From: Paracoccaceae bacterium
Lineage (GTDB): Bacteria > Pseudomonadota > Alphaproteobacteria > Rhodobacterales > Rhodobacteraceae
Assembly: GCA_019454225.1 (NCBI GenBank)
Contig: CP075370.1
Span: 2,721,649 to 2,785,648 of the forward strand
Direction: 5' to 3'
DNA length: 64,000 nucleotides
Shown one piece after another: positions 2,784-38,381 of the stretch. The position numbers were made by a program, and so were the translations under genes. Position 1 is the stretch's first letter. Each line of letters starts with the position of its first letter. The notes under the pieces were generated by a model. It was given only the letters and a program-made list of their open reading frames with translations. It ran no database searches and was not told the origin of the DNA.

Positions 2784-4061
2784 CTAGCGGCGCACCGTCC
2801 CGTCGCCGGTGACGAGATACTTGAAGCTGGTCAACTGCTCGGCGCCGACAGGCCCGCGCGCATGCAGCTTGCCCGTGGCGATGCCGATTTCGGCGCCCAT
2901 GCCGAACTCGCCACCATCCGCGAACTGGGTCGAGGCGTTGCGCATCAGGATGGCGCTGTCCAGCCGGGTAAAGAACCTGTCGGCCGCCGCGTCGTCCTCG
3001 GTCAGGATGCTTTCGGTATGGCTGCTGCCATGGCGGCGGATATGGGCAATCGCCCCGTCCACGTCATCGACCACGGCGGCGGCAATGATCATGTCGAGGA
3101 ACTCGCGCCCGAAGTCGTCGGGCGACGCCGGTTTCACCCCGGGCAGATGGTGCAGCCCCTCGCCCGCCCGGACCTCGACCCCAGCGCCCACCAGATCGGC
3201 GATCACCTGCGCGCCAAGCCCCGCCACGAGATCGCGATGGATCAGCAGGCATTCGGCAGACCCGCAGATTCCGGTGCGCCGTGTCTTGGCATTCAGCACC
3301 ACCGCGCGCGCCTTTGCCGGATCGGCGGCACGGTCGAGGTAGACATGGCAGATGCCTTCCAGATGCGCAAAGACCGGTACCCGCGCCTCGGACTGGACCA
3401 GGCCGACGAGGCCCTTGCCACCGCGCGGCACGATGACGTCGATCCAGTCGGTCGCACGCAGCATTTCGGCCACGAATGCCCGGTCGCGGCTGGGCACCAG
3501 CTGGATCGCCGCCTCGGGCAGACCGGCGGCGCGCAGGCCCGCGACCATCGCCGCATGGATCGCCATCGACGAATGGAGCGACTCGGAACCGCCCCGCAGG
3601 ATCACGGCATTGCCCGCCTTGAGGCACAGCGCACCGGCATCGGCCGTCACGTTCGGGCGGCTCTCGTAGATCACGCCGATCACCCCCAGGGGGGTCGCCA
3701 CGCGCCGGATCGTCAGCCCCGAGGGCACCGTCCATTCCGCCAGCACGCGGCCCACGGGGTCATTCTGCGCCGCGACGGCCCGCAGGCCCTCGGCGATGCC
3801 CTGCACCCGCCCCGCGTCAAGCCGCAGCCGATCCGACATCGCGGGCGACAGCCCCTTGTCACGGGCCGCCCCCATGTCCCGCGCATTGGCCTCGAGGATC
3901 GCAGGCAGCGTCTGCAGAACCGCATCGGCCGCGGCAGCAATGGCCGCCTGCTTCTGCGCAGGGGGCGCGAAGGCAAGATCGGCGGCAGCCGCACGCGCGG
4001 CCCGCCCCATCGTCTCGATCAGCCCGGTATCGACCTGCCCGGTATCGACCTGCCCGTCCAT
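2784..4061 (-). CDS. proA: Glutamate-5-semialdehyde dehydrogenase
   Basis: Full-length ProA-like sequence ([24 protein letters not shown]). The N-terminus carries a duplicated QVDTG; the alternative start is ATG 4010. Confidence 0.9.
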
Positions 4062-4106
4062 CGCATCCTCCGTCCTGCGCGGGGCCGCGTCAGGCCCCGC
4101 CTGCCG

Positions 4107-6310
<2,204 letters not shown>

Positions 6311-6353
6311 TCAAGGGCGCCCCCCGGCACCAGCCGGGTGGGGGGACGGGTGG

Positions 6354-6923
6354 TCAGCCAAGGCGTTTCAGATAGGTCCAGGTCGGCACGCGGGCATTGC
6401 GGGCGACCGAAAAGCTCTCGGCGTCGCCGATGTATTCGAAGCCCGCATTCGTCAGCACCCGCGCCGAACCGGGATTGTCCTGGAACACCTCGGCAAAGAT
6501 CGTGCGGTTGGCCTGCGGGTTCGCCGCAAGCAGCGCCTGCACCGCCTCGGAAGCGATGCCGATGTTCCAGAAGGCGGGCGCCACCCAGTAGCCGATTTCG
6601 GACTGTCCGCGGTCCATTGCCTTGAGGCTGATCACGCCCAGAACCTCGGGCAGGCCGGACTGCGTGCCGTCGATGACCCAGATATCCTCGCCCGCGCCGC
6701 GCTTCATCGCGCGGGTGACAAAGGCCTCTGCCGCACCGGGCGGCAGCGGATGGGGGATGGATCGGGTGGCCTCGGCAACCCGCCGGTCGCCCGCATAGAG
6801 GGCGAACAGCCCGGCATCGGCGCGCCGGGCCGGGCGCAGCGCAAAGCGCCCGGACGCGATCGCACCCTCGGGCACGGCAAGGGGCGGCGGCGCCGCTGCC
6901 GCCCTGTTCAGGTCGAGTGTCAT
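6354..6923 (-). CDS. GNAT family N-acetyltransferase (RimJ/RimL-like)
   Basis: GNAT core IGYWVAPAFWNIGIASEAVQALL. Start set to ATG 6923, preceded by GGAGGGA. Confidence 0.75.
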   Translation of the reverse strand: MTLDLNRAAAAPPPLAVPEGAIASGRFALRPARRADAGLFALYAGDRRVAEATRSIPHPLPPGAAEAFVTRAMKRGAGEDIWVIDGTQSGLPEVLGVISLKAMDRGQSEIGYWVAPAFWNIGIASEAVQALLAANPQANRTIFAEVFQDNPGSARVLTNAGFEYIGDAESFSVARNARVPTWTYLKRLG

Positions 6924-7090
6924 GGCTTCCCTCCTCGAAACCACGGACGGAGCGGCACCCGCCACCCCGCGAAATTTCCTGTCCCACACATGATGTGGGA
7001 ACGCTGCAACCCGGTCGCAACCATCGCGGGCGTGTCGCCCTGCGGCCGCCGGGGCCCTTTCTGCCCGCCGAACCCGGCGGAAATGAGGAA

Positions 7091-7136
7091 GGGGACCGGC
7101 CTTCCGGCCGATCCCCTGCTTACATCCCGGATGTAA
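7091..7136 (-). terminator. Tandem hairpins downstream of rpmA (putative intrinsic terminator)
   Basis: Minus strand after the TAA stop: TTACATC-ccg-GATGTAA (7 bp), then GGGGATCGGCC-ggaa-GGCCGGTCCCC (11 bp, one G-U), followed by TTCCTCATTT. Confidence 0.55.
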
Positions 7137-7145
7137 AGGTTCGGC

Positions 7146-7415
7146 TTACTCGGCTGCCTCGGCTGCGGGGACCACCGAAATGAACGTACGGCCCTTGAGC
7201 CCGCGCTTGAACGTCACATGACCCTCGACCGTCGCAAAGATCGTGTGGTCGCGGCCCATGCCGACACCCGCGCCCGGATGCCAGGTGGTGCCGCGCTGGC
7301 GCACGATGATGTTGCCCGGAATGGCCGCCTGACCGCCGAACAGCTTGACGCCCAGACGGCGACCTGCGCTGTCACGACCGTTGCGGGACGAACCGCCTGC
7401 CTTCTTGTGTGCCAT
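7146..7415 (-). CDS. rpmA: 50S ribosomal protein L27
   Basis: [24 protein letters not shown] is the canonical L27 N-terminus; 89 aa. Confidence 0.97.
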
Positions 7416-7427
7416 GGAACGGGCTCC

Positions 7428-7886
7428 TTACGCGGTTGCGGCGTCGGCGGGCTTGGCCGCCTTGGCACGCTTGGGTTTGGCGGGTGCTTCCACAGCCGCG
7501 GGTGCGGTGCCATGCGCGGCGCGGCGCGCGGCGGCCGTTCCGGTCGCGGCCGCAACGCCGGTCGCCTCGGCGCCCGTGCCCAACACGTCGGTCACACGCA
7601 GCAGCGTCAGCTGCTGGCGATGGCCCTTGGTCCGCTGCGACGAATGCTTGCGGCGGCGCTTGACGTAGTGGATCGTCTTCTCGCCCTTGATCTGGTCGAT
7701 CACCTCGGCCTGCACGGCGGCGCCGGCCACGAAGGGCGTGCCGACCGTCAGCGTCTCGCCGCCGACCATCAGGATGTCGTTGAACTGGATCTTCTGTCCA
7801 GCCTCGGCATCAAGCTTCTCAACGCGCAGAACGTCTCCCGCCTGCACCTTGTACTGCTTGCCGCCGGTCTTGAGGACCGCAAACAT
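7428..7886 (-). CDS. rplU: 50S ribosomal protein L21 with Ala/Lys-rich C-terminal extension
   Basis: MFAVLKTGGKQYKVQAGDVLRVEKL is the canonical L21 start (internal ATG at 7886). It has a long A/K/P-rich tail, as in other alphaproteobacterial L21 proteins. Confidence 0.93.
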   Translation of the reverse strand: MFAVLKTGGKQYKVQAGDVLRVEKLDAEAGQKIQFNDILMVGGETLTVGTPFVAGAAVQAEVIDQIKGEKTIHYVKRRRKHSSQRTKGHRQQLTLLRVTDVLGTGAEATGVAAATGTAAARRAAHGTAPAAVEAPAKPKRAKAAKPADAATA

Positions 7887-8024
7887 GGGCCGCTTCCTTC
7901 TCTCGGTTTCCGCGCCCTGCGGCCCCGGATCGCTCCGGCGTTTGGTGCCTTCGGACAGCGCGCCCCCTGCGGGAGCGTCATCAATGTAAAACCCGGCAAA
8001 GCACAGGCCCCGCCGGGATGCGCG

Positions 8025-8053
8025 CTTATGATCCGCAGCCCCGGGCTTGTCAA
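8025..8053 (-). promoter_or_regulatory. Sigma70-like promoter for rplU-rpmA
   Basis: The minus strand reads TTGACA (8053-8048), a 17-nt spacer, then CATAAG (8030-8025), about 140 nt upstream of the rplU ATG. Confidence 0.5.
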
Positions 8054-8090
8054 GCGCCGGGCCCACGCGCGCGCGCCAGATCTCCGGCCC

Positions 8091-8966
8091 CTAGATGTCC
8101 TGCCCCATGAGTTGCAGCGCCGCCGCGCGGCCAAGGTCATAGGACACCTGGCCGAACACCGCGTCGAAGGCGGCGAACAGCGCGTGGTTCAGCTTCTGAC
8201 CCTGCGGACTCATCGAGAAGGCGACGTAGCCCTCAAGGTCGGCGTCCGACACCGGCCCGTAGGCCAGGGCAAGATAGGGGAACAGCCAGGCCTCGGTCTC
8301 GGCGCGGATCTCCGGTTCCTGCCCCCAGACATCGGCCAGCATCTCCTCCTCGCTCACGCCCTGGCCCATCGCCCCGGCGGCGGCCATGCCGCGGTAGAAC
8401 GAGAGGTTGGCGTTGAGCGCGCCCTGCACATTGGCCTCGATCAGGTCGTTCGCCTCGGCAAAGCGGCGCAGCAGGTCGAGCCGCGCATCGCCCCGTGCCG
8501 TCATGTCCTCGACCTCGATGCGGGCGGCTTCTTCCACCGCTTCGTCCAGCAGCGCCCGCCGCGCCTCGATCTCGAGCGTCAGGATGCGTCTGCCGCGATC
8601 CGTGCCGAAGAATGCCCGCGCGGCCGCGAGCGTGTCGGCATCTCCACCGATCTCGGCCGCCATCGCCGCCTCGAACCGCGCAAGCATGGTCGGCGGGTCA
8701 TAGATCGCCTGCACCGCGCCCGTCCAGTCGGCCCCGCCGCGCCCCGGGAACAGTTCGTCCTCGAGTTCGCTGCCATAGGCCAACCCCTCGTCCCGCATCA
8801 CGGCCAGGAAGTCGTCGATCTTCAGAAGCGCCGTCAGATCGGCCGCGCGCGCCGCGCTTTCGCCGGCCGCCTGTGCGAGCACACCCCGGGGCAGCACAAC
8901 CACCGGCGCGGCGGCAAGCGCGCCAACCAGGCAAACCGTCAGCAGTCGAATACGGATTCCCGGCAT
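8091..8966 (-). CDS. Secreted hypothetical protein, DUF2059-like
   Basis: Signal peptide MPGIRIRLLTVCLVGALAAAPVVVL...AQA (start ATG 8966). The C-terminal block LEGYVAFSMSPQGQKL resembles DUF2059; the family name is tentative. Confidence 0.55.
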   Translation of the reverse strand: MPGIRIRLLTVCLVGALAAAPVVVLPRGVLAQAAGESAARAADLTALLKIDDFLAVMRDEGLAYGSELEDELFPGRGGADWTGAVQAIYDPPTMLARFEAAMAAEIGGDADTLAAARAFFGTDRGRRILTLEIEARRALLDEAVEEAARIEVEDMTARGDARLDLLRRFAEANDLIEANVQGALNANLSFYRGMAAAGAMGQGVSEEEMLADVWGQEPEIRAETEAWLFPYLALAYGPVSDADLEGYVAFSMSPQGQKLNHALFAAFDAVFGQVSYDLGRAAALQLMGQDI

Positions 8967-9089
8967 GTCCACCCCCCGAACGGGCGCCCCATGCACCCTT
9001 CCCTTCGCAGGTAATGCCTGGCCCCCCCGTTGCCAAGCACCCGGCACAGGAGCCGGCCGTTTCCCGCCCGCAACCTGTCAGGATGCCCC

Positions 9090-9118
9090 TTGCAGCCCCT
9101 GTGTCACTTCGCTAAGAG
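9090..9118 (+). promoter_or_regulatory. Possible promoter of tRNA-Ser
   Basis: TTGCAG (9090-9095), a 16-17 nt spacer, then CTAAGAG, ending about 25 nt upstream of the tRNA 5' end. Confidence 0.3.
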
Positions 9119-9141
9119 CGCGTCACGAAGACCCCTGACGC

Positions 9142-9231
<90 letters not shown>

Positions 9232-9346
9232 CCCGAACGCCCCCGAAATCCAACGATCTCTGCCAGATGCGCCGGCGCGTTCGGAGAGTTAATGCAACCT
9301 TAGCGCCAGACTGATACTGCTTTCGGGCAACGACCCGGAGGAACCG

Positions 9347-10621
9347 ATGCGGCACGAAACCAAGTTTGCGGCCTGGATCAGGTCAGGCGGCAACAGCGTC
9401 TTCGTCTTGCCGCTTGGTCCGGTTCAGGCGCCGGAAGTCAAGTTCTCGGTGGTCCCTGACAGGCTGCTTGACAGCATCATCGACGATGCGCTGGCTACAG
9501 GCGTTGCCCGGCTGAATGGCTTTCTCCCCGAGGGTGTCAGCATTGACATCACGTCGGTCGACCTCACCGCGATCAGGGATCAACTGCGCAGTTCGGTTGC
9601 GGGTCGCCTGAACGAAACGGGCGTGCCGGTCAATCCCAACGACCCAGTCATCAATGCGATCCTTGCGCGATATGCTGAGGCGCTGAACGGCCACTTTCAA
9701 AGAGATGCGCTGCAGCTCGCAACCTACATCTGGCGCAGTCAGGACGATGCCCGTGTTCGCGCTGCGCATGCAGACCACGACGATCGGGTCTTCGCGTGGG
9801 CCAATCCTCCTGCCGGCGGGCATCCCGGCGAGGCATGGAATTGCCGGTGCACGGCAGAACCAATCATTGATCCCCAGATTCTTCCAGAGGGAGCGGTCTG
9901 CGACATCCTGACAGGGGATCGTCTTTCCGATGTATTCCCGGATGCCGACGAAGCCCGTCTGACGCAAGTTGCCAGGGAGATCGACCTGCAGATCGTGACG
10001 GCCGAGTTGAACAGTCCCGAACGACTGGCGCATTTCTTCGGTCAGGTGCTTCAAGAGGTCGGGCAACGAATGCGACTCGTGGAGAGCCTCGACTATCGGG
10101 CGGACCGCCTAGGATCGATCTTCAGCTACTTCAGGCGTAACCCGGAAGAAGCCTTGCTCTACGGGAGAACTGCCGACCATCCGGCAGATCAGGAAGCCAT
10201 CGCAAACCGTGCCTATGCGGACCGCAACGGCAACGGGAATGTCGAGAGTGGTGACGGGTGGAGATTCCGCGGTCGCGGTCTGAAGCAAGTCACCGGCCGC
10301 GCCAACTATCGGGCCTTCGCCGAAGAACACACGCGAATGTTCGGTGAACAGATCGACTTCGAGGCCGAGCCGGACTTGCTGGGAACACCGCGCTACGCCG
10401 TTCGTTCGGCCCTTTGGTTCTGGCACGCCAACAATCTCTTTTCGCTGGCGGACGCAGGTATTAACCGTGCTGCTGCCGATAGCATTACTGCAATCATCAA
10501 TCGTGGGACGGACTCCTATGGGCAGCGCTGGGAAAACGTTCGTCGGCTGAGCGAGTCGGGGGTCTTCGCAAACGTCTGTCGGTTCTCCGTCTCTCGCCCG
10601 CGCTTCGAGGATGCGGAATGA
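9347..10621 (+). CDS. MuF (SPP1 gp7-like) domain fused to a GH19/COG3179 lysozyme-like peptidoglycan hydrolase domain
   Basis: The MuF signature YIWRSQDDARVRAAHADHDDRVF..NPPAGGHPGEAWNCRCTAEP is followed by GH19-like blocks HFFGQVLQEVG, VESLDY, FRGRGLKQVTGRANY, ALWFWHANN and INRGTD. GGAGGA RBS. Confidence 0.8.
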   Translation: MRHETKFAAWIRSGGNSVFVLPLGPVQAPEVKFSVVPDRLLDSIIDDALATGVARLNGFLPEGVSIDITSVDLTAIRDQLRSSVAGRLNETGVPVNPNDPVINAILARYAEALNGHFQRDALQLATYIWRSQDDARVRAAHADHDDRVFAWANPPAGGHPGEAWNCRCTAEPIIDPQILPEGAVCDILTGDRLSDVFPDADEARLTQVAREIDLQIVTAELNSPERLAHFFGQVLQEVGQRMRLVESLDYRADRLGSIFSYFRRNPEEALLYGRTADHPADQEAIANRAYADRNGNGNVESGDGWRFRGRGLKQVTGRANYRAFAEEHTRMFGEQIDFEAEPDLLGTPRYAVRSALWFWHANNLFSLADAGINRAAADSITAIINRGTDSYGQRWENVRRLSESGVFANVCRFSVSRPRFEDAE

Positions 10622-11133
10622 GAAGCGCCCTTCGGCTCCTTGCTGTTGTCTTGCTTATGGGCCTCGCCAGCCGGTCCGTTGGTCAAACAATCTTCGATGG
10701 CCCTTCGGTAGAAACCGCTGAGCTCCGGGTTGAACTGCGACCACAAGGCGAGGACCGATTTGATATCTATCTGACCGACAAAACAACGGGCCGACAGGCA
10801 CACTACGAGTTTGACGGCGAGGGTGCGAACGATCCGGAACCGTTTCTGATTGTCGAGGGCCGCTACTGCGATACGTCGGTCATCCTGCTGACGATCGAGT
10901 TTCCTTGGCGGCATTCATTGCCGCAATACTCCCGCGTCTTGGACACCTACGCTTTTCGCATGTCGGACTTGGCTTATGTCGACATGACGGCTGGGCCGGC
11001 TACCGACATCGCCTTGCTCGACAGTTCTGAAACTGAAGCGGAAGACATGTCAATGCAAACACCGATCCTTGTTGAATGCATCGGGGATCGCGGTGGGAGC
11101 CTGTTCAGATTTGTAATGAAAACAGATGATTAG
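10618..11133 (+). CDS. Orphan secreted protein, candidate periplasmic immunity protein
   Basis: ATGA overlap with the upstream stop and GAGGA 6 nt upstream. N-terminal signal-like MRSALRLLAVVLLMGLASRSVGQ. The rest is acidic and soluble, and I recognise no family. Confidence 0.6.
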   Translation: MRSALRLLAVVLLMGLASRSVGQTIFDGPSVETAELRVELRPQGEDRFDIYLTDKTTGRQAHYEFDGEGANDPEPFLIVEGRYCDTSVILLTIEFPWRHSLPQYSRVLDTYAFRMSDLAYVDMTAGPATDIALLDSSETEAEDMSMQTPILVECIGDRGGSLFRFVMKTDD

Positions 11134-11153
11134 GATGTTAATCAGGTGGAGAA

Positions 11154-11183
11154 GGTTCGACGGCATGCCCATCCCCTCCGCCA
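11154..11183 (+). repeat. Degenerate direct repeat of the tRNA-Ser 3' end (attR-like)
   Basis: GGTTCGA-cggcatg-CCCATCCCCTCCGCCA compared with tRNA 9207-9231 GGTTCGA-at-CCCACCCTCTCCGCCA (7/7 plus 14/16 identities). Confidence 0.5.
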
Positions 11184-11241
11184 TCGACCCGCATCGAACC
11201 ATGGTCGAACGCTCGATTCCCCGTTGGACTGGCCAGAACGA

Positions 11242-11826
11242 TCAGCGGAACTGGTTTGCCCGTTTGTTCTGCGCTGCAAGACTGGCTGTCTCACTGATCC
11301 GTTTCGCCCGCGTGTCCGGCCGCCTCGCCTGCTTGATCCATTCCAGGATGCCGCGCCGGACGGATCGCGGAAAGGCGGCGAAATGCGCCGCAGCCTCGGG
11401 ATACATCACCATTGCGGCGGCCAGATCGACGGGCACCTCCAGCCGTTCGACGTCGTCGAGAAAGGCCCACGATCCATCGGCCCGTGCCGTATCGACAGCC
11501 GCCAGTCCCGCCGGCGCCATCCGGCCGGCCGTCGTCAAGCGCGCGACGCGCGCCTTGTTCGCCGCCGACCACGCGCTGCGAGGCTTGCGCCGCGAAAGAA
11601 GCAGCATCGTGCGCCCTGCGTCCAGCTTTCGCGGCAGGCTGTCCACCCAGCCGAAGCACAGGGCCTCTTCGACGATCGCATCGTAGGGCAGATGGAGGTC
11701 CGGCCTCTGCTTCTTCCATGTGACCAGCCAGATGCTGCCGGAGGTTGCGTGATGCTCCGCGAGCCAGGCGCGCAACTGTGACCGGCTTGTCACCTCGACC
11801 CGCGGCAGATTGCTGCCAGCCGCCAT
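11242..11826 (-). CDS. YdeI/OmpD-associated family protein
   Basis: WLVTWKK....L.YDAIVEEALCFGWVDS and the C-terminal FAAFPRSVRRGILEWI are typical of the YdeI family. TGATG coupling to the upstream gene (ATG 11826; GTG 11829 is also possible). Confidence 0.7.
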   Translation of the reverse strand: MAAGSNLPRVEVTSRSQLRAWLAEHHATSGSIWLVTWKKQRPDLHLPYDAIVEEALCFGWVDSLPRKLDAGRTMLLLSRRKPRSAWSAANKARVARLTTAGRMAPAGLAAVDTARADGSWAFLDDVERLEVPVDLAAAMVMYPEAAAHFAAFPRSVRRGILEWIKQARRPDTRAKRISETASLAAQNKRANQFR

Positions 11827-13019
11827 CACCTCTGCCCCCGGAACCAGTCGCGCATGTCATCCGCAACGATAGCAGCCTCCTCCCATTCAAGGAAATGCCC
11901 GCCCCGGTCGATATCGGTCCAGCGCTGCACGTTGTAGCTTCGCTCCGCCCAGGCGCGGGGGGTGGCGAACATGTCGTGCGGCGTCATCAGCATGGCCGTC
12001 GGCACCGCGACCCGGCCCCATTGGCCCGGGGCGCGCAGGGTCTCGTAGTAGAGCCGCATGGACGATCCGATGGTCCCCGTCGCCCAGTAGAGGGTGAGGT
12101 TCGCCAAGAGCCGGTCGCGGCCATAGCGGGCGACGAAATCGTCGGCGTCGGTCCAGGCGTGGAACTTTTCCAGCACCCAGGCGGCAAGACCCGCGGGGCT
12201 GTCGTTCAGTGCGACGGCAAGGGTGTCGGGCTTCGACGCATGCAGCATCGCGTAGGCCATCTCGGATTGCATCCAGGCTTGCGCGCGGGCGACGAATTCG
12301 GCCTCTTCGGGTGACAGGTCGTCGGGGACATGACCGATGTAGGGATTGGTCCCCGACAGGTGCAGGCCCATCAGCCGGTCAGGCGATTGCAGCGCGATCT
12401 GCTGCAGCACTCCGGCACCCAGGTCACTGCCCCGCCCGGCGAAACGGTCGTATCCCAGGACCCCGGTCATCAGCCGGGTCATCAGGCCGGCGATGCGCGC
12501 CACGCCCATGCCGCGCGTTCTGGGTTGAGCGGAAAAGCCGAAGCCCGGCAGCGAGGGCACGATCACGTCGAAACTCAGGCCCGCGCGTTCGGCGGTCAGG
12601 AGCGGGATCAGGTCGGTCATCTGAAGGAAGGACGACGGCCAGCCGTGCAGGACCAGAAGCGGGACACGGCGGCCCCCTTGCCCCGTGGCATGGATGAAGT
12701 GGATCGCCTCACCGTCGACCTCGGCCACGAACTGCGGCAGCGCGTTCAGGTCTCGCTCGACCGCACGCCAGTCGAACCCCTCGGCCCAGTGCTCGACCAA
12801 TGGACGGAGCCTGTCGGTGTCGATCCCATAGTCCCAGGCCGCGCCTTCGATGCGGTCGGGCCAGCGGGTCAAGCGCAGGCGGGTTTCAAGGTCTTCGAGA
12901 ACGGCATCGGGTACGGCGATGGTGAAGGGGCGTGCGGCCATGGCGGACACCTTTGACTGGGTTGGAAGGGGGAAAAGCGCGGCGACGGCGGTTGCCGTGA
13001 AGAAGTCCCGGCGGGTCAT
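11826..13019 (-). CDS. Epoxide hydrolase family alpha/beta hydrolase with a Tat-type signal
   Basis: EH N-terminal domain (FTIAVPDAVLEDLETRL..TRWPD), HGWP oxyanion motif and GSDLGA nucleophile elbow. Start ATG 13019 gives MTRRDFFTATAVAAL...VSA. Confidence 0.8.
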   Translation of the reverse strand: MTRRDFFTATAVAALFPLPTQSKVSAMAARPFTIAVPDAVLEDLETRLRLTRWPDRIEGAAWDYGIDTDRLRPLVEHWAEGFDWRAVERDLNALPQFVAEVDGEAIHFIHATGQGGRRVPLLVLHGWPSSFLQMTDLIPLLTAERAGLSFDVIVPSLPGFGFSAQPRTRGMGVARIAGLMTRLMTGVLGYDRFAGRGSDLGAGVLQQIALQSPDRLMGLHLSGTNPYIGHVPDDLSPEEAEFVARAQAWMQSEMAYAMLHASKPDTLAVALNDSPAGLAAWVLEKFHAWTDADDFVARYGRDRLLANLTLYWATGTIGSSMRLYYETLRAPGQWGRVAVPTAMLMTPHDMFATPRAWAERSYNVQRWTDIDRGGHFLEWEEAAIVADDMRDWFRGQR

Positions 13020-13106
13020 CGGCGGTTCCTTTCGGTTTCGATGCCCCGCAGTTTCTTCGATGCCGGAAGGTTGAAAAATCTGCGCTGAAGCCTCAGACTG
13101 TTGTCC

Positions 13107-14000
13107 ATGGAGGCAACACTGAACACCGATCACCTGCGCCTGTTCCTGACCGTGCTGGCGGCGGGCAGCTTCACGCGTGCGGCCAACCTCGCGGGCAGCG
13201 ACAAGGCGCATGTCAGCCGGATCATCGCCCGGCTTGAGGATCAGCTCGGCACGCGGCTGCTGAACCGATCGACCCGGTCGCTTTCGCCCACCGATGCAGG
13301 GCGGGAACTTGCGGTCCGTGCACGCGCGATCCTCGACGCACTTGCCGAGACCGAGGATGCGCTCAAGGGTCGTGCCGATCATCCGCGCGGTCGCCTGCGC
13401 ATAACCTGCGGCTACGAGTTCGGGCTGCTGGCGGTGAATGGCTGGGTGCGCGTGTTCCTGGACCGCTGGCCCGAGGTTTCGGTGGAAGTCGATTTCACCA
13501 ATCGCGTGGCGGATATCGTGTACGAAGGCTTCGACCTCGCCATCCGCGTCGGGCGCATGGCTGACAGCGACCTGATCGCGCACAAGCTGTGCGAAGTGAG
13601 CTATGGCTTCTACGCCGCTCCCTCATTCGTGACCGCGCATGGTGCGCCCAGGCATCCGGCCGAACTTGTCGCAGATGGCTTCATCGGCTTCACGGGTTCG
13701 CCCGCCGAGGTCGTGCGCGGCACCGAGACCTGCGCGCTGCCCGCGCGGCCCCGCTACCTCGCAAATACGAACATGGCCGTCCGCGACATGGCCGTCGCGG
13801 GCCTTGGCATTGCGCTGCTGCCCCGGTTCCAGGCAACGCCCTTCGTCACCACAGGAAGCCTGACACCGGTCCTGTCCGGCTGGACGCGCCAGCCCGTCGA
13901 GGTCCATGCCGTCATGGCCACAAGGCGCCGGATGTCCGCCCTGGTCCGCGCGTTCCTGGATGTGGCGAGGACAGCAAAGCTCGACGGAGCGGAGGCGTAA
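13107..14000 (+). CDS. LysR family transcriptional regulator
   Basis: The HTH LRLFLTVLAAGSFTRAANLAGSDKAHVSRIIARLEDQLGTRLLNRSTR is followed by a LysR substrate domain. The gene is divergent from the epoxide hydrolase. ATG 13107 (the track start at 13101 is TTG). Confidence 0.9.
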   Translation: MEATLNTDHLRLFLTVLAAGSFTRAANLAGSDKAHVSRIIARLEDQLGTRLLNRSTRSLSPTDAGRELAVRARAILDALAETEDALKGRADHPRGRLRITCGYEFGLLAVNGWVRVFLDRWPEVSVEVDFTNRVADIVYEGFDLAIRVGRMADSDLIAHKLCEVSYGFYAAPSFVTAHGAPRHPAELVADGFIGFTGSPAEVVRGTETCALPARPRYLANTNMAVRDMAVAGLGIALLPRFQATPFVTTGSLTPVLSGWTRQPVEVHAVMATRRRMSALVRAFLDVARTAKLDGAEA

Positions 14001-36869: not shown

Positions 36870-38381
36870 TCAGTTCCCTGCGGGCACCAGCGCCCCGGGC
36901 GCGGCCATTGTCATGATGTTGGATTCGGTCATCGCATCGCCCGCCAGTTCCCCGGTCACGCGCCCCTCGCTGATCACCAGCACGCGGTCGCACAGCCCGA
37001 TCAGTTCCGGCAACTCCGATGAAATCACGATGATGCCGACCCCGCTTTCGGCCAGCCCTCGCAGGATCGCGTGGATCTCGGCCTTGGCGCCCACGTCGAC
37101 GCCGCGCGTGGGTTCGTCGAGGAAGATGACCCGCGGACCGACCGCCAGAAGCTTTGCAAGCGCCACCTTCTGCTGGTTTCCGCCCGACAGGGTCGAGACG
37201 CGATGCGCCATGCTGGCCGCCTTGAGCCGCAGGGATTCGCCCAGGCGCTGCGCGAGCGCGGTTTCCCGCGCGCCGTCGATCACCCCCATGCGTCCCGCCA
37301 CCTGCCGCAGGTTCAGCGCCGAGACATTGGCCGCAATCGGCATGTCGAGGAAAACACCCTCGCCCTTCCGGTCCTCGGACAGATAGACGATGCCCTGCGC
37401 GATACAGGCGGCATAGTCGCGCAGCACGACCTCCTGTCCCTTCAGCCACACCCTGCCTCGCGCGCCCTGGTCCAGCCGGGTGAGGCCGCGCGCGATCTCG
37501 CTGCGTCCGGCGCCGATCAGTCCCGCTAGGCCGAGGATCTCACCCTGGCGCAGGTCGAAGGATACATTGCGGTAGCGCGGTCCGGTCAGGCCTTCGACAC
37601 GCAGGATTTCGGAGCCGCACGGACCCTGCAGCTTGGGCGGATAGAGGGTATCGAGCTTGCGCCCGACCATCGCATTCACGACATCTGCGGGCGTGACATC
37701 GGCCGTCCGGTCGGTGCGGATGTGCCGTCCGTCACGCATCACCGTCACCCGGTCGCAGTTGGCGAAGATCTCGGCCATGCGGTGCGAGATATAGATGACC
37801 CCGATCCCCCGGGCAGCGAGGTCGCGCATGATCGCGAACAGTTTCTGCGCCTCGTGCTCGGTCAGTGCGGCTGTCGGCTCGTCCAGGATCAGGATGCGGC
37901 AGTCCAGGGTCAGGGCCTTGGCGATCTCGACCAGTTGCTGCTGCGATATCGACAGGCGCCCCGCCGGAACGCGCGGATCGATGTCTGCCAGCGGCGCCAG
38001 CACACGCGCAGCCCGCGCGTTCATGTCTGCGGTGTCGATCAGCGGGTGTCTGGCGCGCGCCGTCTGCGACATGAAGATGTTCTCGGCAACCGAGATTTCG
38101 GCGCAGAGCGCGATTTCCTGATGTACGAAGCCGATGCCGAGCCGCTGCGCGGTGGCAGGAGAATCGATGGCGACATCCTGTCCGTCGATGCGGATCGTGC
38201 CGCTGTCGGGCCGCAGGATGCCGTCGATGATGTTCATGAGCGTCGACTTTCCGGCGCCGTTCTCGCCCGCAAGCGCGTGGATTTCCCCGGCCCGCAGATC
38301 AAGGCGCGCGTCCCGCAGGGCGCGGATCGCACCGAAGGACTTGCAGACATCCTGAAGTTCGAGAAGCGGGGGGGTGGTCAT
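36870..38381 (-). CDS. Sugar ABC transporter ATP-binding protein (duplicated ABC domains, RbsA-like)
   Basis: LLELQDVCKSFGAIRAL, Walker A GENGAGKST and a second ABC half with LSGGNQQKVALAK. Start ATG 38381. Confidence 0.9.
   Translation of the reverse strand: MTTPPLLELQDVCKSFGAIRALRDARLDLRAGEIHALAGENGAGKSTLMNIIDGILRPDSGTIRIDGQDVAIDSPATAQRLGIGFVHQEIALCAEISVAENIFMSQTARARHPLIDTADMNARAARVLAPLADIDPRVPAGRLSISQQQLVEIAKALTLDCRILILDEPTAALTEHEAQKLFAIMRDLAARGIGVIYISHRMAEIFANCDRVTVMRDGRHIRTDRTADVTPADVVNAMVGRKLDTLYPPKLQGPCGSEILRVEGLTGPRYRNVSFDLRQGEILGLAGLIGAGRSEIARGLTRLDQGARGRVWLKGQEVVLRDYAACIAQGIVYLSEDRKGEGVFLDMPIAANVSALNLRQVAGRMGVIDGARETALAQRLGESLRLKAASMAHRVSTLSGGNQQKVALAKLLAVGPRVIFLDEPTRGVDVGAKAEIHAILRGLAESGVGIIVISSELPELIGLCDRVLVISEGRVTGELAGDAMTESNIMTMAAPGALVPAGN

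Follow-up and report, generated by a model that had tools for sequence, protein, structure and literature searches.

A predicted MuF-like toxin with a GH19-type muramidase domain and its probable immunity partner, carried by an att-flanked cassette at tRNA-Ser genes

We analyzed a 64,000-nucleotide stretch of the Paracoccaceae bacterium contig CP075370.1 (assembly GCA_019454225.1, positions 2,721,649 to 2,785,648; hereafter, the window), in which one gene at 9347..10621 (+ strand) encodes a 424-residue protein composed of an N-terminal MuF-like module and a C-terminal GH19-type peptidoglycan hydrolase domain. A small gene for a putatively exported partner overlaps its end, and the pair lies in a 2-kb unit with direct repeats of a tRNA-Ser 3′ end on either side. 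We consider it fairly probable that this unit is an antibacterial toxin–immunity cassette, in which the MuF-like module would serve for trafficking, the muramidase would be the toxin and the partner its periplasmic antidote, with delivery by a capsid supplied in trans and a mobility bound to tRNA-Ser genes.

An earlier, sequence-only reading of this DNA had described the gene as a "polymorphic-toxin-like effector without a phage". This description has been strengthened by comparative observations: the same type of N-terminal module carries other toxin domains, homologues show a recombination breakpoint at the domain junction, the partner diverges together with the toxin domain, phage context is absent from all 21 members of the clade to which the gene belongs, and none of the 33 relatives on viral contigs has the GH19 fusion.

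The predicted toxin and its exported partner

Residues 188-397 of the toxin (9908..10537, + strand) constitute the GH19/COG3179-type domain. They matched the PHROG 181 "endolysin" family at 4.6e-50 and, at the sequence level, several solved GH19-type lysins: 9eoi (6e-30), 9ms6 (7e-24), 8p8e (1e-21) and 4ok7, the SPN1S endolysin (2e-19). When the AlphaFold (AF2) model of the toxin was compared with the PDB by Foldseek, the matches were 9ms7, 8xcl, 8p8e and 4ok7 (E 3e-6 to 6e-5), with the C-terminal domain of the effector TseP (8xcl) found at E 8e-6; among viral structure models, too, GH19/COG3179 lysins ranked first. The assignment made from the letters alone was therefore sound.

The same can be said of the two glutamates put forward as catalytic. 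E237 (10055-10057, + strand) and E246 (10082-10084, + strand) line up with the E...E pair of 9eoi, 9ms6, 8p8e and 4ok7. E246 occurs in 25/25 family members, position 237 is E in 23 of the 25 and D in the other two, and an RGRGLxQxTG block is kept across the toxin family and the solved GH19-type lysins. The Pfam model PF00182 (Glyco_hydro_19), which rests on plant-type chitinases, did not reach its gathering score (13.2 bits vs 25.5, E 0.08). Notwithstanding this, homology and the candidate catalytic residues mark the C-terminal domain as a predicted lysin of the GH19 branch.

The MuF-like module takes up residues 1-175 (9347..9871, + strand) of this ATG-to-stop open reading frame (ORF), in which we found no signal peptide. 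Its core, residues 118-170 (9698-9856, + strand), matched the Pfam family PF04233 (Phage_Mu_F) with E 3.5e-11 and 44.3 bits, against a gathering score of 29.6. Hence, of the two Pfam relationships anticipated by the sequence-only reading, the MuF one passed its threshold and the GH19 one did not. The C-terminal MuF signature quoted in that reading (YIWRSQDD...GGHPGEAWNCRCTAEP) is indeed present, PHROG head-morphogenesis families match the same stretch as PF04233 (down to 1e-19), and four residues of the module, H141, H159, C166 and C168, are invariant. In the AF2 model, whose mean predicted local distance difference test score (pLDDT) is 68.8, the module reaches about 70-90 only from residue 41 on. 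Searches of the toxin model against BFVD gave weak matches, low in template-modeling score, to proteins labeled "minor capsid component" or "head morphogenesis domain" (E 2e-3 to 0.1). A second match to a regular expression for the MuF motif, at 37732-38298 (- strand), was judged spurious upon inspection, being an alternative-frame ORF within a called gene.

The partner gene (10618..11133, + strand) encodes 171 residues and overlaps the toxin stop codon by 4 nt (ATGA). Residues 1 to about 22 resemble a signal peptide, and all aligned homologues share a basic and then a hydrophobic segment, a small-x-small motif, a conserved mature N-terminus and two invariant cysteines, C84 and C154. These features fit a Sec-exported periplasmic protein with a disulfide. 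The arrangement is constant: in 16/16 cassettes the partner (168-183 aa) carries a signal peptide and has a start that overlaps the toxin stop, in keeping with the secreted partner foreseen by the sequence-only reading. The 76 partner homologues that we detected all occur in the same bacteria as the toxin family; an entry from a Paracoccaceae MAG (locus tag prefix KF887) is 100% identical to the window's partner.

The AF2 model of the partner (pLDDT 80) is beta-rich, and the protein belongs to no Pfam, NCBIfam or PHROG family. A relationship to known lysozyme inhibitors or to type VI secretion system (T6SS) immunity proteins was considered and found unsupported, the best PDB fold match having an E of 0.06. 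We nonetheless regard the partner as a probable periplasmic immunity protein, because it combines a signal peptide, invariant cysteines, co-divergence with the toxin domain and survival where the toxin is deleted.

The last two points emerged from comparisons between homologous cassettes (cited below by locus number). Relative to the window, L015 and L017 have an N-module that is 85-97% identical, a GH19 domain that is 45-72% identical and a partner whose N-terminal two-thirds are 30-45% identical. Four other loci (L011, L012, L014 and L020) present the reverse pattern, with 55-72% identity in the N-module and mostly 75-95% in the GH19 domain. The mosaic breakpoint falls near residues 180-200, i.e., at the domain junction, and exchange inside the GH19 clade is allelic only, again at this junction. 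Such a mosaic is the signature to be expected if a toxin domain and its cognate immunity gene are exchanged together.

In Paracoccus alkenifer DSM 11593 (L024:10001-11252), two deletions, corresponding to 9748-10094 and 10215-10455 of the window, have cut the toxin to 229 aa, and the 171-aa partner is intact; judging from the sequence, this looks like an orphan-immunity state. Elsewhere both halves of the toxin are under purifying selection, with a median ratio of nonsynonymous to synonymous substitution rates (dN/dS) of 0.16 for residues 1-175 and 0.14 for residues 185-424. Since the ratio is about 0.15 in both halves, the putative trafficking module is being maintained rather than decaying.

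Relatives inside and outside prophages

The full-length fusion is nearly always 424 aa long and, among its best 120 matches, 61-95% identical. The fusion ORF is intact in over 20 genomes, which span several genera of Rhodobacteraceae/Paracoccaceae, including Tabrizicola, Albidovulum, Ruegeria, Pseudorhodobacter, Rhodobacter and Gemmobacter. For genomic comparisons we used 78 loci from one genome per species; about 22 of them contain the whole fusion and the remainder the N-terminal part alone. In the latter, a module of about 170-195 aa, closing with the motif GGHPGxAxNCRCxAEP, is followed by an extension of 160-395 aa. The extensions at the Rhodobacterales loci fall into at least six unrelated groups, on which Pfam recognized CdiA-CT RNase A, CdiA_C, EC869-like DNase and WHH/colicin-DNase domains.

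A word-index search with the N-module returned mostly fragments of its own clade, and an exhaustive search of representatives was used instead. With residues 1-178 as the query, it yielded 4136 representative clusters with E ≤ 1e-3, of which 541 remained at a cut-off of E ≤ 1e-10. PF04233 was found in 81/81 of the representatives with an extension of at least 110 aa, whose C-termini carried 12 further Pfam families. EC869-like DNase was seen in 8, colicin E5 in 4, WHH in 3 and colicin DNase in 3; EndoU, RNase A and ADP-ribosyltransferase domains were each seen once. Cell-wall-related C-termini were also found: PG_binding_1 in 11 representatives, GH108 together with PG_binding_3 in one, and an M23 peptidase in one.

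By homology, then, the GH19 domain is one of several presumed cell-wall-directed cargoes mounted on this N-module. Because other C-termini of this kind occur on the same module, the fusion is less unique than the sequence-only reading had implied; that reading had also missed the att-flanked unit described in the next section.

The genomic setting of these relatives differs between clades. Nuclease-type members lie on the opposite strand amid the head and tail genes of a lambda-like siphovirus module, in the order head decoration, major capsid protein E, DUF6441, [toxin + small ORF], tail terminator, tail tube and tape measure, with a lambda-family portal and an S49 protease further upstream; members of this type were met in viral contigs as well. 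In a clustering of the N-modules, this phage-linked clade comprised 59 members, 42 of which had at least two phage markers within 10 kb. The GH19 clade comprised 21 members whose modules share 56% identity or more with that of the window, and none (0/21) had phage markers within 10 kb; three other small clades were likewise devoid of phage context. The notion that homologues always sit inside prophage head modules, which would have reduced the gene to a phage remnant, thus finds no support in the GH19 clade. Given an N-module with interchangeable toxin domains and relatives located inside prophage structural modules, we classify the window protein, on homology, as a putative MuF polymorphic toxin.

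Searches in the other direction agreed with the clustering. Among 2.9 million viral contigs we found 33 relatives, all of which had the N-terminal part only, with the GH19 domain in 0/33, and no sequenced phage or plasmid record matched at least 80% of the toxin protein. Within the window, at E ≤ 1e-5, none of the 45 called proteins was assigned to any PHROG family for head, tail, portal, terminase or integrase functions, which bears out the earlier remark that portal, terminase, capsid and tail genes are missing from the 64 kb.

Some features of the phage-borne relatives deserve separate mention. In L059 (9629-11266), and also in L051, L052 and L066, the toxin cassette is antisense to the structural genes of a lambda-like prophage, and its third-position GC content is 0.69, as opposed to 0.86-0.91 in the phage neighbors (L059 and equivalents). 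Its strand and lower GC thus give it the look of a moron that was inserted, not of a head gene native to the phage. Several small paralogous ORFs of the immunity type come after the toxin in L051.

L051 and the GH19 locus L018 reside on the same 4.26-Mb chromosome, CP059262.1, labeled "MAG: Exiguobacterium profundum". This record carries Rhodobacterales-type loci, namely a GH19 cassette 71% identical to that of the window and a lambda-like prophage with a MuF toxin, and its taxonomic label appears to be wrong.

The att-flanked cassette at tRNA-Ser genes

The tRNA gene noticed upstream of the toxin by the sequence-only reading is a tRNA-Ser with anticodon CGA (9142..9231, + strand; ARAGORN, and Rfam tRNA with 55.9 bits), and the cassette is bounded on the left by its 3′ end. 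The final 16 nt of this tRNA, CCCACCCTCTCCGCCA (9216..9231, + strand), make up a left attachment (att)-like direct repeat. It is followed by a 115-nt leader (9232..9346, + strand), conserved in about 15 genomes with unrelated flanks, with a Shine-Dalgarno sequence, GGAGGA, at 9337-9342. At the right end there is a 36-nt pseudo-tRNA remnant, GGAGAAGGTTCGACGGCATGCCCATCCCCTCCGCCA (GGAGAAGGTTCGAC...CCCCTCCGCCA; 11148..11183, + strand), kept in most genomes. Its last 16 nt, CCCATCCCCTCCGCCA (11168-11183, + strand), represent the right att-like repeat, identical to the left copy at 14/16 positions; the left repeat and the remnant belong to the same direct-repeat family (D3).

When positions 6000-14000 of the window were compared with all loci, homology between genomes with unrelated flanks started at 9203-9224 and ended at 11183-11185. 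These limits coincide with the direct repeats of the tRNA 3′ end, meaning that the cassette is a discrete unit. From the sequence, we define 9216-11183 as a putative 1.97-kb mobile cassette, lacking an integrase and tied to the tRNA 3′ end.

Counting the window, the cassette directly follows a tRNA-Ser gene in 10/24 loci, and a tRNA-Ser gene is found within 10 kb in four more; the anticodons used are cga, gga, gct and tga. The pseudo-tRNA remnant recurs at the right end of most cassettes and, at loci where the cassette does not adjoin an intact tRNA, at the left end as well. Both orientations are seen, the cassette of L020 being inverted. The third-position GC content is 0.68 and 0.61 in the two genes of the cassette, vs 0.79-0.88 in neighboring genes. 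For comparison, a tRNA-Ser gene lies within 10 kb of 4/32 phage-type genome loci and 0/24 viral loci, and a search with a degenerate att pattern for a site shared with the lambda-like phage gave no match.

Cassettes also occur in series. L009 and L014 each contain two diverged GH19 cassettes in tandem, and L017 (7392-11852) has an array at tRNA-Ser(gct) in which another MuF toxin comes first, followed by an att remnant, the GH19 cassette and a second att remnant. The additional toxin (533 aa, with PF04233) has a C-terminus that matches nothing identified and is accompanied by two small paralogous ORFs of 90 and 115 aa. In L002, a complete P4-type tyrosine integrase, with arm-binding, central and catalytic domains, abuts the cassette, and an intact tRNA-Ser lies 4.5 kb upstream. 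The simplest reading of these arrangements would be an islet without an integrase of its own, accreting at tRNA-Ser sites and depending for its movement on an integrase that acts in trans. No terminator was found on the coding strand of the cassette, and in the Rfam search nothing besides the tRNA passed the threshold.

Several individual loci add detail. In Rhodobacter calidifons M37P (L007:2590-4822), about 0.5 kb past the right remnant, one finds genes for an HNH endonuclease and a DUF3489 protein, together with an ORF of 112 aa that resembles the N-terminus of the terminase GpA at a sub-threshold score. They had first been taken for a prophage in tandem; as only the HNH gene and the truncated, sub-threshold GpA fragment are there, we now speak of a remnant, and these genes may derive from a phage once integrated in tandem.

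In L003 (3060-3134) and at the right end of the second cassette of L014 (about 4030-4130), an inserted element splits the pseudo-tRNA remnant at a shared position, after GGTGGAGA. Its ORF starts with MGEVTIIGVDLAK in one case and MQEISIIGVDLA in the other and looks like an IS110-family transposase; this insertion sequence may specifically target the att remnant.

The most divergent full-length copy, that of Ruegeria arenilitoris (L001:10001-12340; about 63% identity, 183-aa partner), is situated away from tRNA-Ser, amid nap and YcaO/TfuA genes and about 450 bp from the 3′ end of an opposite-strand tRNA-Thr(cgt), which suggests that other tRNA targets may be in use. At L079 (9070-10687) and L046, an RNase-A-type MuF toxin with a 101-aa partner lies just 3′ of tRNA-Arg(ccg), with no phage markers nearby, so orphan tRNA-adjacent cassettes may extend beyond the GH19 type. 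Finally, in the window itself, a 13-nt inverted repeat (85% complementary) links 9345-9357, at the toxin start codon, with 11184-11196, right after the att repeat; it may be due to chance.

Proposed mode of action, alternatives and known systems

In the mechanism that we propose, the toxin, having no signal peptide, would be made in the cytoplasm, and its MuF-like module would tether it inside a phage-type capsid, by analogy with SPP1 gp7 and Mu F. The capsid would most likely be provided in trans by a co-resident lambda-like prophage or by a gene transfer agent (GTA). Ejection would release the cargo into the periplasm of the recipient, where the GH19-type domain is predicted to cut peptidoglycan in its glycan strands, with E237 and E246 as the catalytic residues. 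The partner, translationally coupled to the toxin and presumably Sec-exported, would neutralize incoming kin toxin in the periplasm, as its architecture and co-evolution suggest. The cassette itself would be moved by a P4-type tyrosine integrase encoded elsewhere, like the one seen adjacent to it in a single case. Because the toxin has no export signal and its probable antidote is periplasmic, we infer that the toxin arrives from other cells.

A number of observations weigh against this proposal. The PF04233 alignment covers model positions 58-111 of 112, that is, the C-terminal half alone, and the toxin does not reach the cut-off of TIGR01641 (phageSPP1_gp7; 30.4 bits vs 39.65). There are no phage or GTA genes in the window, and the lambda-like element was seen to share a genome with the cassette in just two cases (L002 with L044, and L018 with L051). 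The N-module of the phage-linked clade is only 31-36% identical to that of the window, and the GH19-clade module was never joined to another toxin type in the clustered sample; for these two reasons, loading into the capsid of that particular phage is far from certain. In addition, the partner has no fold neighbor in the PDB, lysozyme inhibitors and immunity proteins included (best E 0.06), an integrase is not adjacent in most cassette loci, and no sigma-70 consensus promoter was found at the cassette.

That the N-module forms a clade apart could just as well indicate a different helper, a GTA for instance. Rhodobacterales are known for these particles, and our search of the literature found no link between MuF proteins and GTAs. 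In its most specific form, which we put forward only tentatively, the proposal would make the cassette a "satellite toxin": a 2-kb unit without recombinase or particle genes that borrows both a tRNA-Ser integrase and a phage or GTA capsid, so that only cells with the cognate partner survive. If this were true, the cassette would encode the first MuF toxin aimed at the cell wall and paired with a periplasmic immunity protein. It would also be direct evidence that MuF cargo packaged in capsids ends up in the periplasm and that a source other than the phage genome can supply it.

Of the competing explanations, the one that fares best, albeit rather unlikely in our estimate, is a virion-associated entry enzyme: a capsid-borne muramidase would open the peptidoglycan of the recipient for DNA, with the partner as a regulator or as a protection for the producer. 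Lysozyme domains of capsid, portal, tail and MuF-linked polyvalent proteins have been proposed to breach peptidoglycan at invasion (PMC5512222), and the GH108, M23 and PG_binding_1 domains fused to this N-module would suit such a role. However, entry enzymes are encoded within the element that they serve and need no exported, co-diverging partner, whereas 0/21 GH19-clade copies are in phage context and the fusion is absent from viral contigs. The mosaic diversification in the style of toxins and immunities, the retention of the immunity gene after toxin loss in L024 and the diverged tandem cassettes also speak for a toxin–immunity pair instead.

Less probable still is an effector of some other export route (T6SS, type IV secretion system (T4SS), vesicles or release by lysis), for which the MuF-like module, exapted and without any relation to capsids, would act as an adaptor or plug. 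The closest proven interbacterial user of this lysozyme fold is in fact a T6SS effector, TseP, and the GH19-clade N-module is separate and has no phage linkage. Yet the module passes the Pfam MuF threshold, and the relatives closest to it reside within phage structural modules. In about 20 different genomic contexts the cassette has no secretion-system genes at its sides, and Pfam shows no known T6SS or T4SS effector marker.

We give little credence to a lysis module, i.e., an endolysin that releases GTA or phage particles with a spanin- or holin-like partner. The C-terminal domain is about 40% identical to Pseudomonas phage endolysins and to the R-pyocin lytic enzyme, and Rhodobacterales do release GTAs by lysis. 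Against this, there is no holin or transmembrane partner, and the partner is predicted to be beta-rich, soluble and exported, unlike the helical spanins. A capsid-type N-terminal module is moreover foreign to endolysins, and the gene is horizontally mobile and not syntenic, with an allelic diversification and tandem arrays that would be unexpected for a housekeeping lysis gene.

Least credible of all is a functionless remnant of a decayed prophage once at tRNA-Ser: it could account for the adjacent tRNA att site and for the HNH gene and truncated GpA fragment just downstream in L007, but not for 424-aa ORFs intact in over 20 genomes of several genera, a dN/dS of about 0.15 in both halves and the same unit boundaries at four tRNA-Ser genes, which would not result from independent decay.

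The toxin–immunity cassette that we favor resembles the described MuF polymorphic toxins (Jamet et al. 2017, PMC5576092; Zhang et al. 2012, PMC3482391) in having a MuF N-terminal domain, a variable C-terminal toxin and a small downstream ORF of the immunity type. For such toxins, capsid loading has been proposed (PMC3482391, PMC5576092, PMC11699363). They are widespread, but what they do and how they are delivered is still described as unknown, and characterization extends to only two enzymatic types, with Apk2 and Bxa as members (PMC11699363). The MuF toxins of temperate phages are prophage-borne, and 96% of chromosomal muf genes were assigned to prophages or their remnants in the 2017 survey (PMC5576092); the window gene differs in this respect, as 0/21 of its clade are in phage context.

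Further differences concern the target and the packaging. Described MuF toxins act in the cytoplasm, whereas the toxin domain of the window is a predicted peptidoglycan hydrolase with a periplasmic target and an apparently exported partner; the text of the 2017 survey makes no mention of lysozyme, chitinase or peptidoglycan (PMC5576092). The N-module is also short (about 175 aa) by comparison, and the pair sits in a self-contained att-flanked cassette at tRNA genes.

With the GH19-type endolysins and the R-pyocin lytic enzyme (SPN1S 4ok7, KTN6 gp46 8p8e, 9eoi), the window enzyme shares a homologous catalytic domain, the same Glu pair and the RGRGLxQxTG block. Those lysins, about 200 aa long, stand alone and belong to lysis cassettes, whereas the window enzyme has a 175-aa capsid-type N-module and an exported, co-evolving partner, with no holin or spanin. 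The TseP–TsiP pair is instructive in that the C-terminal domain of TseP cleaves peptidoglycan, is toxic in the periplasm and is blocked by its immunity protein (PMC11893102; PDB 8xcl). Its lysozyme-like fold is the same, and its Glu pair (E654/E663) is spaced nine apart, as are E237 and E246. Delivery of TseP is nevertheless VgrG-dependent, while the window protein has a MuF-like module, no T6SS genes nearby and a partner in which similarity to known immunity proteins went undetected.

As for the cassette, CIME-type cis-mobilizable elements are att-flanked islets at tRNA genes that lack an integrase. The window cassette is similar to them in its tRNA 3′-end repeats at both ends, in the absence of a recombinase inside, in tandem accretion and, in one genome, in an integrase-bearing neighbor. 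It differs in being only 2 kb long, in having one toxin–immunity pair as its cargo and in using four tRNA-Ser isoacceptors, and it is a putative mobile unit.

Relative to the literature consulted, three features appear to be new: a toxin domain predicted to act in the periplasm together with an exported, probable immunity protein, a dedicated phage-free clade of the N-module, and a pair packed into an att-flanked minicassette of 2 kb that sits at tRNA-Ser genes. A periplasm-acting toxin with an exported antidote would reveal the site at which the cargo is released, and its separation from any phage genome would let packaging in trans be tested cleanly. MuF toxin–immunity pairs that circulate as minimal att-flanked tRNA cassettes and build tandem arrays would represent a route for the spread of interbacterial weapons and immunities in Rhodobacterales. 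On the practical side, the family could offer muramidases derived from Gram-negative bacteria and a new inhibitor fold, both of them predicted.

Adjoining the cassette but outside the mobile block, the gene at 11242-11829 (- strand) encodes a PF13376 OmdA protein ("bacteriocin-protection, YdeI/OmpD-associated"; 2.3e-18). Its position is probably a coincidence, because other genomes do not conserve this flank along with the cassette.

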